Below are positions 382 through 6,224 of a stretch of DNA of 22,660 nucleotides, piece by piece; the stretch's first letter is position 1, and each line of letters begins with the position of its first letter. The notes under the pieces were generated by a model. It worked only from the letters and a program-made list of their open reading frames with translations, had not been told where the DNA came from and made no database searches. The stretch comes from an uncultured archaeon (lineage in GTDB: Archaea; Asgardarchaeota; Lokiarchaeia; Sigyniarchaeales; SOKP01). The DNA lies in assembly GCA_964447495.1 (NCBI GenBank), contig CAYUTF010000054.1, positions 1-22,660 of the forward strand, read 5' to 3'. A program made the translations under genes and the position numbers.

Positions 382-3300
382 TTAATTTTCTTCAACTTGA
401 GGCTCAATATCTGGAAGCTCCAGCATACGTTTTGCCTCCTCCTTTAAATCAACACTGAAAATATCAGTAATGCCACTTTGCTGCATAGTAACTCCATAAA
501 TTCTATCCGCATTCACAATATTCTCCTCTCTATGACTTATAACTAAGAATTGTGCTTGAGCTGCAACCTCTTTAAGGAGCATAGAGACACGGTGTACATT
601 TGGACCATCCAATTGAGCATCTACCTCATCTAAAACGTAAAAAGGACTCGGAAGGAATTCCTGAACAGCAAAGATAAAGGAGAGCGCCACGAGGGTTTTC
701 TCACCACCACTGAGTATTTCCAAGCTTGAGATTTTTTTACCTCTTGGACGTGCTTCTATGCTTACTCCGCCCTCAAAAGGCTTATCAGGACGATCTAATA
801 TCATTTTGGCTGAGCCGCCAGGGGATAATTTTTGAAAGATTCGAGAAAATTCTCGATTAATTTCATGATATGCTTTCATAAAAGTACGAGTTTTTTCAAG
901 TTCAATTTTTTCAATAGCATCTAAGATGGATTTACGCTCGCGTTGTATGGTTTGTCGTCGCATATCTATCTCATCAAATCTCTCTTTAACCGTATCGAAT
1001 TGTTCTATTGCTTTTAAATTTACAGGCTCCAGTGCAGTTCTCTTTTTAGTTGCTTCAGAAATATCAGATTCGAGTCCTGTTTCAGATAAATCATCTGTTA
1101 CAGGGGGTAGGATGCCAAAATCCTTAGAGCGATGGTAGAGGGTTTCAATTTGATCCTTAGTAATAATGATTTTGGATTCATAGTTATTTAATTTCGAATT
1201 TTCCATAGAATGATCTGATTTTAAATCTGCTATTGCTTTCTGATATTTCTTTTGTTTGTTCCAAGATTCATCTTTTTGTTGGACATATCGATTTAACTCT
1301 TCTTGCTTTAGATTTTTATTTTCGTTTGCTTTCGATAAATCTTCTTCAATTTTTACTATTTCTTTTGAGATCGTGTCGATTTCCTTTTCTGTGTTAGTAA
1401 TATCTTGCCCTAACGAGAGAATTTTGTTTTCTCTTTCTTTATTTTTTCTCATATCGTTAAGGTTTCGTTGTAATTTTTGTAAATCGTTATTCAATTTATT
1501 TAAATTCTTTTGTGCTGTTTTTTGATCTTCTATTTCTTTAGTTTTCTCTTCTCCAAAGGCATCAATTTCTTTTTGTATTCCCTCAACCTCAACCTGAAAC
1601 GTCTCAATTTGCGTCTTATTTTCATCAATATTTTTCTTACATGCTTCAATGCTTACTGTTGCTTCCGAATTTTCATTTGACAATTCCTCGATAGAATTTA
1701 TAATCATCATAATATTATCCAAAGATCTCAATCTATTCATTGTTTCTTCTAGAATTTTATTTTGTTCGTCAATTTGAGCCCTTATAGTTTCAGTATTCTC
1801 CCAGAATTTTTCTTTTTTAGTTGTTAATTCGTTTATGTTCGAATTTATAGTATCTTGTTCAGTATTTAATGAATTTATCTTTTCATCAATATTACCTATA
1901 GTTTCCTTCTTTTTGTCTATTGATATGTTCAAATCATTAATCGTAGACTCAATCTCTATTATAGTTTCAAATAGGGATTGGATTCCTTGTAATTCTTGTA
2001 GATTGATTTGCAAATCATCTAATTCTTTTTGTTTCGAATCAATATTATCTTGGATGGTCTCAATATTTTCCCAATATTTAGATTTGAGCTCTTTTAATTC
2101 ATTAATATCTTTTGCATAGTTTTCTTTTTCTTTTTCATCAATTTGATTAGTTCTTTGGGTTATTTCTTCCTCAGATTTTCTGATTGTCTCATTTGCTTCT
2201 GAGATTCTTTTATTAATCTCTTCTAAACGTTTACTAAATACTGAAAAGTCTTCCGTATCGCGTTGTTTATTAATATTTATTTCGGTTAATTTATTTTCTA
2301 TACTATTTAAATCATCTGCTTGAGAGGTTAAATTAACTGAGATTTCTTCTAATTGTTTGTATAATTCTTGACTTTTTGACATAGTTAATTTTCTAAGAGA
2401 GATATAAACATTCTCAAGGATTTCCATAAGATCTTGAACAAAACTATCAAAGTTTGTAGTAGATTCTTGAATTTCAACATCAGCAGACTCTTTTACTTTT
2501 GAGATTAATTGATCTATTGTTGAATCAACATTATCAGTAAATAATGTTAAGGTTTGTAATATAGAATTAATTGTTTTGGAAGATTCAATTTCTTCTTCAG
2601 AACCAGTACTAACATCTTCAACAGTTTTCATAATATCAACGATATCTAATATAAATTTTCTAAAATCATCAGCAGAAGTTTCAATTGCTTCCGCATTAGA
2701 TTGTTGAATATTGCTTTTTATAGATTCTACACTAATATTGATATTTTGAGTTAACATATTTAGAATTTGAAGGATGCCAGTGATATCTTCGGTATTTCTC
2801 TCATATTCTTTTTCAGTTTTTTCGATCTTTGATAAGAACTCTTCTTTTTCTTTTGTTAATTCTTCTAATCTTCTCTGAATATTTTCTTTTTTAGAACTTA
2901 AATTATTTTCATCCTTATCTATTTTGTTTAAATTATTCTTTAAGCTGGTTATTTTTAGAGCAAGATCGCGTTTTTCACGGTCAAGAATAGTAAAGTCTCT
3001 TTTGACTAATTTTAATTTTGTATTTAAATTTTCAATTTTTGCTTTGTTGTCATATATTTCTGTTTCAATTGAATCTTGTTTCATTAGTAATAATTCAAGA
3101 TCTTGCTCATACTTTCTAAAAGTTGAATTTTCCTCCTTATACTCTTTCTTTAACTTACTTAATTCACTAAGGATTGTTGCTTTTTTATTGAGAATCTCTT
3201 TTAGAACAATTTCTGTATCTTTTCCCTCACTTAGTTCTTTAATTTTATTCTCAATAGAATTTTTTTTATCTTCCATCTCATTAATTCTGGAATTATTAAT

Positions 3301-4830
3301 TTTTATTTCTGTATTCAAGGATGATAGAGATGACTGTAAATTTAATTGAGTTGAGTTTAATTCATTTTGCTTATCTTGTAATTCTTTAATTTGATTTTCT
3401 AACTCTTTTTGATTTTGATTTTCAGTAGATATATTTAATTTTAATTCTTCTATTTTTTTTCTAATCTCTGTTTCCTCTTTTTTAGTAGCCTTTATAGCTT
3501 CTTCTATACTTTCTGCTTCTCCCTTAAGTTTTTTCAAATCATCTTCTAATTTTATCTTCTTTTCTTCATTTTTTTTTATATTTTCTTTAAGAATCTTGAT
3601 TTGAGTATTATCAGAGGATATATTTTGTTTAACCGTTGATATTTCAGATTTAAATGTAGATTGTTCTTTATTCTTTAACTTGATTTTATTATCCAAATCC
3701 GCTTGGTTTTGTTGCCTTATTTCGATTTCCTGCTTTGAATCTTCAATATGTTTTTCTGTTTCAGATATTTTATTATTAAAGTCTCCTATTAATGAATCAA
3801 ATGTTTGACCTTCTTCTAGTTTCACCTGTTGATTTTCTAAGGATACAATCTCTTTAGAATATTTGTCAATAGATTTCTTAGCGATTTCTAAACTAGTTTG
3901 ATTTGAAGATAGTTGAGTTTTTAATTGAGTTATATTCTCATTAATGGTTTCCCTTTCCTTTTCTTTGTCAATTATCGTTTTTTGGATGTTATCCATAAGG
4001 AGGGATTCTTGTTTTAATACTTCTTCTTGTCTATTTATTCTCTCTTCTAATTCTTCAATAACTTTAGTAGAATCCTCAACACTTTGTTGTAATTTCTCCT
4101 CTTCTTCTTTCAGTTTTGATATTTTTAATGCGATTAATTGAGCATTATAAAATTTTATTTTCTCATCCAATTCTTTCCAAGCTAAAGCGTCATTCTTTTC
4201 TTTCTCTACTTTTTTTAACTGTGATGAAACCTCTTTAAAAATCGCTTCGAACTGTCCTAAATCTCTTTCTGCTTTTTCTAATTCTTTCATTGTAGCATCT
4301 TTCATTTCATCATATTTCTGAAGCCCAATAAGTTCTTCGATAAACCTTCTGCGATCTTCTGGATTCATGTGTGTTAATTCAACAATTTTACCTTGCAGGA
4401 CAAATTGATTAGTCCCATCCGGATCTATATTTGCCGCCGCAAGAGCATTTAGAATTTGTTGACGTGTTGCTTTTTTACCATTTATTCTATATCCTCCTCC
4501 TCCGCCTCGTTTAATAGATCGAGATATTTCAAAAGTATCTCCAGGCGCTGGGAAAATTTGTTCAGAATTATCAAAATATAAAGTTACTTTTGCTCTTTGT
4601 GAAGGGTTTTTTCCTCTAGAACCAGCAAAGATCAAATCTTCTAAACTTTTAGCTCTCATCGTCTTTTTACTTAATCTTCCTAATGCAAACGTCAAGGCAT
4701 CTATTATATTGGATTTTCCCGCTCCATTTGGACCAACAATACACGTAAAACCACTTGAGAGTTTAATTGTTACGGTTCTATCCCCAAAACTTTTAAATCC
4801 TGACATAGAGATCTTTTTTATATGAGTCAT
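382..4830 (-). CDS. smc: SMC-family chromosome segregation ATPase, atypical (about 1482 aa, no canonical hinge)
   Basis: N-term GFKSF, Walker A GPNGAGKSN, Q-loop FVLQG, long coiled coils, PVNLKAI, signature LSGGEK, Walker B/D-loop FYVLDEVDAQLD, H-loop VISHR. ATG at 4830 preceded by GAGG is preferred over the TTG at 4845. Confidence 0.93.
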   Translation of the reverse strand: MTHIKKISMSGFKSFGDRTVTIKLSSGFTCIVGPNGAGKSNIIDALTFALGRLSKKTMRAKSLEDLIFAGSRGKNPSQRAKVTLYFDNSEQIFPAPGDTFEISRSIKRGGGGGYRINGKKATRQQILNALAAANIDPDGTNQFVLQGKIVELTHMNPEDRRRFIEELIGLQKYDEMKDATMKELEKAERDLGQFEAIFKEVSSQLKKVEKEKNDALAWKELDEKIKFYNAQLIALKISKLKEEEEKLQQSVEDSTKVIEELEERINRQEEVLKQESLLMDNIQKTIIDKEKERETINENITQLKTQLSSNQTSLEIAKKSIDKYSKEIVSLENQQVKLEEGQTFDSLIGDFNNKISETEKHIEDSKQEIEIRQQNQADLDNKIKLKNKEQSTFKSEISTVKQNISSDNTQIKILKENIKKNEEKKIKLEDDLKKLKGEAESIEEAIKATKKEETEIRKKIEELKLNISTENQNQKELENQIKELQDKQNELNSTQLNLQSSLSSLNTEIKINNSRINEMEDKKNSIENKIKELSEGKDTEIVLKEILNKKATILSELSKLKKEYKEENSTFRKYEQDLELLLMKQDSIETEIYDNKAKIENLNTKLKLVKRDFTILDREKRDLALKITSLKNNLNKIDKDENNLSSKKENIQRRLEELTKEKEEFLSKIEKTEKEYERNTEDITGILQILNMLTQNINISVESIKSNIQQSNAEAIETSADDFRKFILDIVDIMKTVEDVSTGSEEEIESSKTINSILQTLTLFTDNVDSTIDQLISKVKESADVEIQESTTNFDSFVQDLMEILENVYISLRKLTMSKSQELYKQLEEISVNLTSQADDLNSIENKLTEININKQRDTEDFSVFSKRLEEINKRISEANETIRKSEEEITQRTNQIDEKEKENYAKDINELKELKSKYWENIETIQDNIDSKQKELDDLQINLQELQGIQSLFETIIEIESTINDLNISIDKKKETIGNIDEKINSLNTEQDTINSNINELTTKKEKFWENTETIRAQIDEQNKILEETMNRLRSLDNIMMIINSIEELSNENSEATVSIEACKKNIDENKTQIETFQVEVEGIQKEIDAFGEEKTKEIEDQKTAQKNLNKLNNDLQKLQRNLNDMRKNKERENKILSLGQDITNTEKEIDTISKEIVKIEEDLSKANENKNLKQEELNRYVQQKDESWNKQKKYQKAIADLKSDHSMENSKLNNYESKIIITKDQIETLYHRSKDFGILPPVTDDLSETGLESDISEATKKRTALEPVNLKAIEQFDTVKERFDEIDMRRQTIQRERKSILDAIEKIELEKTRTFMKAYHEINREFSRIFQKLSPGGSAKMILDRPDKPFEGGVSIEARPRGKKISSLEILSGGEKTLVALSFIFAVQEFLPSPFYVLDEVDAQLDGPNVHRVSMLLKEVAAQAQFLVISHREENIVNADRIYGVTMQQSGITDIFSVDLKEEAKRMLELPDIEPQVEEN

Positions 4831-5030
4831 CACATTTTTCCTCAATTTAGTTTAGGTTTCACCTGAATAAGTTATTAATAAATGTGAAATAATTATTTTT
4901 TCCAAAAATTTTCTTATTTGAGTATAAAATTAAAGAATAATTATAACTATATATATAATCAGTATTTAATTTGTTAAGATTTCAGAGGATTTTATCTTAT
5001 AATTTGTTATTATCTTCTGTAGAAGAGTCC

Positions 5031-6224
5031 TTAATCTTTATCAAATATTGAATCTACTATTGTTTTAAGGTTTCTAGGATTTATAATTAAGTAGTAGCAG
5101 GAAGCGTCAGATAAATTATTATATCCAGAAGCTATTGTATTTCCTAGATTCTTTTTAGACAAGTTAATTATCCCAACACTCAACAAATTTCTAATAATGT
5201 TATGATATTGGGTTTTACTAACATCATATTCTATTGATTCGCATGAAATGACATATATTTCTTCTAATTTTTTATTAGTTATGTAATAATTTGAATGATG
5301 CAAGAAAAAGTTCGCTATATTATCGAGAAAGATAATTATTAGTAAGTCCTCTTCAGAGATATAAGTAAGTAATGAAAATTCATCTGTAACCTGAATTGTA
5401 TCAAATTGATTTTGGATAAGATCTACTAGATCTAGAAAGTGAATAGATTTTGGATTTTTAAGGAGGGGATATAGCTCTTTGAAGATTTCAATTCCTTTCC
5501 CAGGAACAGGTACATAATGTTCAAATATTAAATCTGTAATAAATTCGATCAATTCAGTGTCTATTTCGTGTAAAAAAGTCAACATAACTCTTTGCTTTAG
5601 AATGTCAAATAATTCCGAATATGAATAGAATTCTAATTTTTTTTTGTAATCAAACTCATTTAATATATCAAAGGTATTACTACGATTGACTCTATTTACT
5701 GTTGAGATGAGAGTTGTGTTTGTTTCTTTACTATATTTTAAGAATTTTTTAAAAAGTACAGGTTTTAAATCTTCAATGTTATTAAAAACTAAAATAAGTG
5801 GGTTCGTTAATTTGCTTGTAACTAATTTGAAAGTATTCCATAAATCGGATATACTTGAATTTAAAATTGATGTTATTTTTATCTCATAATTACCTATGAG
5901 AGAAACTTCTGCTAATAAACTAAACATTATTTCTTGCAGATCTTTATCTTTACAATCTACGCTAATTTCAGAGATAAATGTATTTTTTTGATTTTGAAAA
6001 GCTAAATCCTTTATGACTTTGTTAATTATTACTTTTTTACCGATTCCTTTTAATCCTTGATAAAGAACACTGCAAGAGAAATTATCTGAGAATGAATCAT
6101 TTAAAAGGGAATTTAAATTGTTCTCTTCTTTTATTCGGTGTAATATTTTTGGAGGGATATAATTCTGATCAAATAAGGCTCTTGGACCGATATAATCATT
6201 AAAATATTCGGACTTAACAATCAT
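5031..6224 (-). CDS. Cdc6/Orc1-like AAA+ protein with C-terminal winged helix and degenerate ATPase motifs
   Basis: N-term FDQNYIPPKILHR resembles the Cdc6 YxPxxLxHR start. Walker A-like GLKGIGKK, Walker B-like ILVFNNIE, YSYSELFDILKQR lid motif, C-terminal IY..SC...YHNIIRNLLSVGII winged-helix pattern. Confidence 0.8.
   Translation of the reverse strand: MIVKSEYFNDYIGPRALFDQNYIPPKILHRIKEENNLNSLLNDSFSDNFSCSVLYQGLKGIGKKVIINKVIKDLAFQNQKNTFISEISVDCKDKDLQEIMFSLLAEVSLIGNYEIKITSILNSSISDLWNTFKLVTSKLTNPLILVFNNIEDLKPVLFKKFLKYSKETNTTLISTVNRVNRSNTFDILNEFDYKKKLEFYSYSELFDILKQRVMLTFLHEIDTELIEFITDLIFEHYVPVPGKGIEIFKELYPLLKNPKSIHFLDLVDLIQNQFDTIQVTDEFSLLTYISEEDLLIIIFLDNIANFFLHHSNYYITNKKLEEIYVISCESIEYDVSKTQYHNIIRNLLSVGIINLSKKNLGNTIASGYNNLSDASCYYLIINPRNLKTIVDSIFDKD

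Follow-up and report, generated by a model that had tools for sequence, protein, structure and literature searches.

The hinge-less smc gene and its layout

The window considered here is the whole stretch of DNA that was analysed (22,660 nucleotides (nt) of contig CAYUTF010000054.1, assembly GCA_964447495.1, from an uncultured archaeon of the Lokiarchaeia), and its longest open reading frame (ORF) is a gene for an SMC protein that lacks the hinge. The gene lies on the minus strand at positions 382-4845. A reading of the sequence alone had drawn attention to positions 2407-2784 of the minus strand, which are residues 688-813 of this ORF, as a duplicated helical module occupying the place of the hinge or zinc hook and possibly marking an undescribed class of SMC. 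The frame encodes 1487 amino acids (aa) from a TTG codon, but translation probably begins at the ATG of residue 6 (nt 4828-4830), which gives 1482 aa, as in many relatives. The parts of the gene are as follows.

382..4845, minus strand: hinge-less smc gene, the longest ORF of the window (TTG start, 1487 aa)
4321..4830, minus strand: ATPase head, N-terminal half (residues 6-175)
4708-4734, minus strand: Walker A (residues 38-46)
Residues 147-153, minus strand: Q-loop region
2785..4320, minus strand: coiled-coil arm, N-terminal strand (residues 176-687, ~510 aa)
2620..2784, minus strand: apex repeat 1 (residues 688-742; large hydrophobic residues ILVMF 40%, K+E 11%)
2572..2619, minus strand: acidic linker (residues 743-758), with a predicted hairpin turn at residues 747-752
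2407..2571, minus strand: apex repeat 2 (residues 759-813; ILVMF 38%, net charge -9)
976..2406, minus strand: coiled-coil arm, C-terminal strand (residues 814 to ~1290)
382..975, minus strand: ATPase head, C-terminal half (residues ~1291-1487 plus the stop codon)
691-714, minus strand: signature motif (residues 1378-1385)
607-642, minus strand: Walker B/D-loop (residues 1402-1413)
Residues 1435-1440, minus strand: H-loop

The midpoint of the gene (2613) falls inside the acidic linker (nt 2572-2619) between the two repeats, as had been claimed. The strands of the arm, of which the N-terminal one is rich in K+E with 26% ILVMF, measure ~510-570 residues each against ~335 in the hinge-bearing paralogue described below, or ~1.6 times the usual length. 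Estimated from the domain borders, this lengthening amounts to about two steps of ~100 residues, and steps of ~100 residues are also given for the arm lengths of natural Smc proteins in the accessible part of PMC5344682. The apex region is bridged by independent contigs of two other public runs (record 19 of run X3, 1712-3156, and record 14 of run X2, 2402-3307).

The arm strands show some ungapped self-similarity at residues 361-560 and 896-1075 (nt ~3166-3765 and ~1621-2160), with offsets of 98 and 90 and scores of 88 and 101, which BLASTP did not confirm. Arm lengthening by tandem duplication may have left this trace, or it may be a mere effect of heptad composition.

Absence of a hinge and of a zinc hook

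The claims that the centre of the protein has neither the alpha/beta hinge nor a zinc hook are borne out. The Pfam hinge model (SMC_hinge, PF06470) has no match in the window protein even at E<=1, and the AlphaFold2 (AF2) models described below contain no strands. The glycine-rich motif of the hinge is also missing, the sole run of glycines being GGGGG at residue 114, in the head, and there is no CxxC anywhere in a protein whose only cysteines are Cys 35 and Cys 1069. When a profile of the apex was compared with a hinge profile built from 11 canonical Asgard Smc proteins, hhalign gave a probability of 0.5%, and the Pfam hinge was not found in the four full-length relatives tested (P0126, P0129, P0137 and P0139). 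The checks by hidden Markov model and by structure that the sequence-only reading had proposed thus yield no hinge match in the apex region. A hidden hinge that has diverged beyond recognition is rejected on the grounds that there is no profile similarity to hinges, no strand in the models and no Pfam match.

Heads and family identity

The ATPase head motifs are intact and Smc-like, as first described: the Walker A, Q-loop, signature, Walker B/D-loop and H-loop motifs were all located. Pfam SMC_N matches residues 8-1460 with 150.2 bits, and the two Smc equivalog models give 613.5 bits for TIGR02168 (above its cut-off of 567.35) and 618.5 bits for TIGR02169 (below its cut-off of 729.4). These matches are broken into five separate pieces and leave the models' hinge part uncovered; the hinge-bearing Smc of the strain MK-D1 is matched by TIGR02169 from end to end with 804 bits. 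The closest solved relative in the PDB is an archaeal Smc head (5xei_A, E 2.8e-120, query residues 6-302), and the matches that follow the archaeal Smc heads are bacterial Smc and eukaryotic SMC1-4.

To place the heads we built a tree with IQ-TREE (LG+F+G4, 356 head columns) from 28 sequences, all from Asgard archaea, and rooted it on the Rad50-like ORF of the window's own genome. The hinge-less proteins form one clade (support 100/100) that lies inside the clade of canonical Asgard Smc, and the order's hinge-bearing Smc proteins group in a clade of their own (100/100). Canonical and hinge-less proteins together are split from a divergent SMC type of 1154-1188 aa and from the Rad50-like outgroup with 99.4/99. 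Because the hinge-less clade falls inside that of canonical Smc, the hinge-less protein is, by the phylogeny of its heads, a paralogue of canonical archaeal Smc. The head phylogeny that the sequence-only reading had proposed as a check thus, among Asgard sequences, groups the protein with canonical Smc.

Several other identities were considered and rejected. Rad50/SbcC is excluded by the two cysteines (35 and 1069) and by Rad50 models that reach at most 114 bits against cut-offs of 700-1087, and RecN by a TIGR00634 score of 32.9 bits against 407.85. The model of the Archaea-specific SMC-related proteins (ASRP, NF045487) gives 165.4 bits against a cut-off of 300, and that of arcadin-4 (NF053563; Rkd4 model) 26.3 bits against 860. 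The divergent second archaeal SMC (the 'SMC5/6-related aSMC' of PMC8665677) is separated from the window protein in the head tree (99.4/99), and the divergent copy in the window's genome has generic PDB matches only. For the SMC-like proteins of defence systems (Wadjet JetC, Lamassu LmuB and others in PADLOC), the matches are partial or confined to the heads, the best being mad3 with 166.4 bits over residues 9-304.

Duplication and predicted structure of the apex

The two apex segments of 55 aa (residues 688-742 and 759-813) align without gaps at an offset of 71 with 16 of 55 positions identical, exactly as had been reported. Their BLOSUM62 score of 89 was reached by none of 20,000 shuffles of the second segment. 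At the level of the family, profiles of repeat 1 and repeat 2 built from 109 full-length relatives match each other in hhalign with a probability of 97.8% (P 7.6e-13) over 58 columns in register, and the best of 40 control comparisons with arm segments reached a P of only 0.0092. Repeat 2 of the window protein also matches repeat 1 of distant orthologues (E 5e-7, 1e-6 and 4e-4). The profile match together with the weak arm controls indicates that the duplication is real, that it comprises ~58 residues and that, as far as the sequence profiles tell, it is specific to the apex, so the description of a duplicated helical module at the centre of the protein is upheld by the family-level match.

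An AF2 model of residues 600-900, from an alignment of 27 rows, consists of two unbroken helices without any strand (mean predicted local distance difference test score, pLDDT, 86.3; predicted TM-score, pTM, 0.49). Residues 600-746 form a single helix, and the short turn is at residues 747-752 (local 148-153), in the acidic linker. The apex modelled alone, from 16 rows that include two head-less paralogues (see below), gives the same hairpin with its turn at local residues 74-77 (pLDDT 70.6, pTM 0.37). In these models the two repeats would be the two strands, packed antiparallel, of the intramolecular tip of the arm. The Foldseek search that had been suggested returned long helical hairpins only and no hinge-like fold: the best hit was the cytoplasmic domain of the chemoreceptor MCP (2ch7, E 7e-4, TM-score 0.36), and the others were pieces of Smc, MukB and Smc5-6 arms. 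Pfam gave nothing above cut-off for the apex alone (best Apolipoprotein, 23.4 bits against 90), the PDB profile search brought up designed helical bundles alone (E 4.7e-4 or weaker) and no natural relative of it, PADLOC had no match within it, and the best hits of a search of the ESM Atlas (0.78-0.81) were all unnamed or unrelated clusters.

In composition the apex is set apart from the arms, with K+E at 15% against 27-34% and large hydrophobics at 36-40% against 25-26%. Its net charge is -17 over 126 residues. Read from the sequence, each repeat has ends rich in hydrophobic residues and a polar middle, and conserved polar residues are present in the tip. Mean identity to the window protein, taken over 108 relatives, exceeds 0.9 in the heads and is ~0.5 in the arms; in the apex it is 0.93 for residues 681-720, 0.58 for residues 721-760, which include the linker and are the lowest of the apex, and 0.78-0.85 for residues 761-840. 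In conservation the tip comes close to the heads.

Distribution

A word-indexed protein search found the apex in 168 database proteins. Among the matches listed (120 of the 168) the apex is 73-90% identical, the full-length proteins measure 1469-1487 aa, a further 16 entries are shorter, being partial or cut genes, and the source names are SMC or AAA ATPase of Promethearchaeota/Lokiarchaeia. In an exhaustive search of 1.84 billion representatives, 34 clusters (at the 50% identity level) share the apex, including full-length hinge-less proteins at 26-40% apex identity, and a bacterial origin is shown for none of the 34. A single contig under the label Bacillota (L027) shows 57% identity to a Lokiarchaeal protein, and this label is probably wrong.

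The apex is present in 133 of 400 genomes of the phylum, the window's own genome included. By family of the order Promethearchaeales it was found in 113 of 134 genomes of the window's family (f1), 1/1 of f2, 14/14 of f3 and 2/4 of f4, which makes 130 of 153 other genomes of the order, and the proposal of a conserved, lineage-specific class within Asgard archaea agrees with these counts. Among the 400 genomes of the phylum only two outside the order carry it (G039 and G063). The former has three contig fragments that are 76-81% identical to the window's apex; the latter has an 8.6-kb contig (C70) whose head is nearly identical in the tree to those of G131 and G132. Both sets of contigs are probably mis-binned. 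Carriers with names include Promethearchaeum syntrophicum MK-D1 and Ca. Lokiarchaeum ossiferum, both cultured, and Ca. Harpocratesius repetitus; the gene is found in closed genomes of cultured strains, and MK-D1 and Harpocratesius are placed in the Promethearchaeaceae of the Promethearchaeales.

Apart from the full-length proteins, there are head-less proteins of 921-1179 aa in the Promethearchaeaceae (P0140, P0142, P0144-P0146 and P0148; gene loci L052-L054 at G135:C1:3820000-3825500, G138:C1:4600500-4606000 and G143:C1:978500-984000). They were found only in genomes of family f3 and in none of the window's family. P0145 matches the window protein in BLASTP over 158 residues of the apex only (E 1e-14, 26% identity). 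Both P0145 and P0146 carry the apex-type module twice (in P0145 at residues ~70-230 and ~320-480, the second copy read by eye), followed by a middle part that does not look helical, a coiled coil and a lysine-rich tail like that of histone H1. The occurrence of the module in head-less proteins implies that it is an independent domain.

Hinge-bearing paralogue and other SMC genes

The 400 genomes were also searched with the hinge model, and a match was called strong at E<=1e-20 in an ORF of ~1200 aa (counts are read from the table of results). Strong matches occur in 4/5 genomes of genus g2, 1/1 of g3, 2/2 of g7, 1/1 of g10 and 5/10 of g11, and by family in 10/14 genomes of f3 and 3/4 of f4, so in some genera a hinge-bearing Smc coexists with the hinge-less paralogue. 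No strong match was found in the window's genus g1 (0/41), nor in g12 (0/54), g13 (0/7), g5 (0/6), g6 (0/4) and the single genomes of g4, g8 and g9 (0/1 each); genera without a strong match have only weak ones, with E from 1e-4 to 1e-11. In the window's genome, which is 98.4% complete, the weak match lies in a divergent SMC of 1157 aa and not in the window gene, and a search with Smc models recovers only the window gene, this divergent SMC and a Rad50-like ORF. With no strong hinge match and only three genes of the SMC superfamily, the hinge-less protein would be the sole Smc of canonical type there, and judging by the same searches this holds for the window's genus and seven other genera.

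The Rad50-like ORF of the window's genome (C4:29941-32664; L060:342-3065) encodes 908 aa without a CxxC. Within NCBIfam it is matched best by Rad50 models, none of which reaches its cut-off (175 bits against 700).

Kleisin and ScpB genes

In the six relatives whose ORFs were read, smc comes first and is followed directly by a kleisin gene and then by scpB. These are MK-D1 (G143), L. ossiferum (G138), G147, a genome of the window's genus (G239) and two of its family (G188 and G205). The kleisin ORF has 334-353 aa with a typical winged-helix C-terminal end, and the ScpB of the operon scores 121.5 bits. The fetched locus of Harpocratesius (G135) begins inside the kleisin, with its C-terminal piece, and continues with ScpB, and in G149 matches to the ScpA and ScpB models lie, by coordinates, just downstream of the apex match. 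In all five genomes compared (G143, G138, G135, G147 and G149) it is the hinge-less gene that the top-scoring ScpB (E ~1e-34) adjoins; the hinge-bearing Smc is adjoined by its own, weaker-scoring ScpB. In the window's genome a 5'-cut scpA and an scpB stand at the start of another contig (C110; L010:1-1548), where they adjoin the same glycosyltransferase gene as in G239. From this gene order, the same operon very probably exists in the window's genome and was broken by the assembly, and the kleisin and ScpB are the predicted partners of the hinge-less Smc.

Harpocratesius has three ScpB-type kite genes (C1:575283-575717, 1715865-1716347 and 1243479-1243841), each beside a different SMC paralogue (hinge-less, hinge-bearing and divergent), which suggests three complete gene sets of the SMC type in this genome. 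The kleisins carry N-terminal extensions that are specific to lineages (loci L065:2864-3871 on the minus strand, L066:533-1537 on the plus strand, and L062:1774-2832 and L061:1415-2434 on the minus strand). In the window's family the extension has a motif resembling HeH/Rho_N/Ish1 (22.3, 19.1 and 26.1 bits, all below threshold), MK-D1 and L. ossiferum have a lysine-rich tail there, and in G147 it has a C2H2-like motif.

A proposed Smc-ScpAB-type complex joined at its tips

We propose, with a probability of roughly 0.6, that the gene encodes an order-specific, hinge-less paralogue of Smc that acts in a complex of the Smc-ScpAB type and dimerises by placing its tips side by side. The observed part of this proposal, which comprises canonical heads, long arms, a duplicated helical tip, the operon and the absence of a hinge, we hold with high confidence. 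The dimerisation of tip with tip, to which the extra hydrophobic residues and the conservation of the sequence point, we regard as an even bet. The hinge-less Smc would be the motor of the complex on the chromosome, and its two subunits would be joined at the far end by hairpin tips that pack into a four-helix bundle. This bundle would take over the constitutive dimerisation that is the job of the hinge, and with the tips packed side by side the two heads would lie together at one end, like those of canonical Smc in its rod form. DNA binding by the tip itself is improbable given its acidity, and the DNA contact lost with the hinge might, as a speculation, be supplied elsewhere, for example by the basic or HeH-like additions at the N-terminus of the kleisin. 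A more extended picture, which we offer tentatively and consider slightly less probable than tip-to-tip dimerisation, is that of a natural hinge-free Smc-ScpAB with arms of ~85 nm and a self-associating tip domain, which would be the sole condensin-type machine in most genera of the window's family and whose module would have been reused, in two copies, in the head-less proteins with H1-like tails.

Some of our own results speak against parts of this proposal. The case for a repeat is weak in the single sequence, because arm windows of 55 aa score alike or higher (101 at residue 911 with offset 90, and 88 at residue 376 with offset 98), the apex pair being 7th among 49,275 ungapped window pairs, and because a composition-corrected self-BLASTP of the window protein detects no repeat within it at E<=0.01. 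The alignments behind the monomer models are shallow (27 and 16 rows), and the pTM values are low (0.49 and 0.37), of the kind expected for rod-shaped proteins. Both models are plain two-helix hairpins, which does not favour a dimerising tip; of the 'helical-bundle' apex first suggested, the all-helical nature is retained and the bundle is not seen. With Pfam ScpA the kleisin scores 16.5-17.4 bits, short of the cut-off of 24.6, and the operon is not contiguous in the window's assembly, whose contig stops 381 nt past smc. Within canonical Smc, the hinge-less clade is placed with an ultrafast bootstrap of 36, so the tree does not decide between duplication within the order and transfer from another Asgard lineage. 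Finally, the search had no apex match in 21 of the window's family of 134 genomes, which may be explained by incompleteness or by the first-look filter of the search.

Among the alternatives, the one that survives best, though we consider it unlikely, is that the conserved tip is a docking site for another factor and that the subunits are joined only by the ATP-engaged heads and the kleisin. The strong acidity of the tip (net charge -17) and its conserved polar residues would suit a basic partner, and candidates are the K-rich kleisin tail of the Promethearchaeaceae, histones, and the head-less proteins with two modules and an H1-like tail; the adjacent kleisins do carry K-rich or HeH-like N-terminal extensions, and head-less paralogues with two modules and K-rich tails do exist in family f3. 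However, these paralogues were found only in f3 and not in the window's family, and the kleisin additions vary by lineage, so that no single partner is conserved together with the tip. A buried interface between helices also suits the surplus of large hydrophobic residues better than an electrostatic dock does, and a constitutive dimer is needed by all characterised Smc-kleisin complexes according to the accessible text of PMC5344682.

Still less probable is a hairpin that folds back on itself at the polar middles of the repeats and forms an intramolecular four-helix knob capping a monomeric arm. The protein would then be a monomer or a head-engaged dimer, nearer to repair ATPases of the RecN/Rad50 type than to condensin. 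The alternation of hydrophobic-rich ends and a polar middle in each repeat agrees with such a fold, as does the module near the N-terminus of the head-less proteins, a position that no tip of a long antiparallel arm could have. Yet in both AF2 runs the helices pass unbroken through the repeats, the kleisin/ScpB operon and the canonical Smc heads favour a complex of the condensin type, and the scores for RecN (32.9 bits against 407.85) and Rad50 (at most 114 against 700-1087) are low. The notion of an artefact or of decay (mis-assembly, a pseudogene, or a hinge diverged past recognition), which the end of the window's contig just downstream of the gene might invite, has a negligible chance given the intact frame, more than 100 full-length relatives of nearly constant length, the gene in closed genomes of cultured strains, the bridging of the centre by contigs of other runs, an apex conserved above the level of the arms, and models without strands and without profile similarity to hinges.

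Comparison with known systems

The proposed tip-joined complex is most like canonical Smc-ScpAB (Pyrococcus heads 5xei/4i99, B. subtilis Smc), with which it shares the heads, their motifs and phylogeny, a TIGR02168 score above its cut-off, an intramolecular antiparallel arm, and an operon with an ScpA-like kleisin and ScpB. It differs in having a duplicated helical hairpin tip where canonical Smc has a hinge, and arm strands of ~510-570 residues where canonical Smc has ~335, and in its TIGR02169 score, which stays under the cut-off. RecN, an SMC-superfamily ATPase without hinge or hook and with an all-helical far end, resembles the window protein in these respects. It is a bacterial protein of ~550 aa whose short coiled coils join end to end at their tips to form the dimer, and it is not known to work with a kleisin or kite. 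The window protein differs in having kleisin and kite genes and in scoring only 32.9 bits with the RecN model (cut-off 407.85). The chemoreceptor domain 2ch7 is a structural analogy only: it too is a long antiparallel helical hairpin, but there is no sequence relation (Pfam MCPsignal is not matched at E<=1) and the TM-score is 0.36. In MCP, the signalling domain pairs with a second chain to make a four-helix bundle, and its tip is highly conserved.

That an unrelated element can replace the hinge has a precedent in the Smc(Zh) chimera, a B. subtilis Smc that carries the zinc hook of P. furiosus Rad50 in place of its hinge and supports normal growth, as described in the part of PMC5344682 that was accessible (see also PMC6969161); this implies that the hinge fold as such is dispensable. 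The chimera is artificial and dimerises through a zinc-binding CxxC, whereas the window protein is natural, has no CxxC, and its dimerisation is putative. An ocean-metagenome cluster of 'hinge-less' SMC proteins assigned to Actinobacteria, with SMC-like heads and an antiparallel coiled coil, distinct from Rad50/SbcC and known from predicted structures only, is described in the available portion of PMC12153180. That cluster is bacterial, and, as far as this source goes, the idea of a natural hinge-less SMC is not wholly new. [quoted passage not shown] A full-text literature search found no description of the hinge-less protein, and the supplement of 10.1101/2024.01.07.573240 may already list the paralogue. 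The suggestion of an undescribed SMC class is therefore kept in part: no published match was found and the protein is not placed in any characterised hingeless family, but it is a variant of canonical Smc-ScpAB, a real one and apparently undescribed.

The hinge is treated as universal in SMC-kleisin machines, where it serves dimerisation and, in several models, DNA binding or entry. A natural replacement of the hinge would be a ready-made test of which hinge functions are dispensable, sharper still where the hinge-bearing paralogue has also been lost; within the accessible content of PMC5344682, the question has so far been addressed only by engineered chimeras. The arms, constant in length and unusually long in ~100 proteins (1473-1487 aa in total) although only ~50% identical, bear on the idea that arm lengths are tuned. 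The presence of the gene in the two best-known cultured Asgard archaea makes biochemistry, imaging and chromosome-conformation work feasible, and, if the proposal is true, the tip would be a new module for organising chromosomes that could be studied in MK-D1 and L. ossiferum. This is an order-specific innovation, not common to the lineages usually placed closest to eukaryotes, and thus has little direct bearing on eukaryogenesis.

Flanking sequences of the gene

Just upstream of smc, at positions 5031-6224 on the minus strand, an ORF of 397 aa has sub-threshold matches of the Orc1/Cdc6 kind (Cdc6_C 19.7 bits against a cut-off of 25.1, AAA_7 16.3 against 25.8). On the other side of the gene, positions 1-381 of the window have no blastn match (E<=1e-3) to the sequence downstream of smc in G239, and a contig of run X2 reaches 735 nt past the start of the window. 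At ~270-345 on the plus strand a frame, read by eye, ends in a zinc-ribbon-like motif, CPVC...CPNC; it has no ATG, GTG or TTG after the preceding stop and is absent from the list of ORFs.

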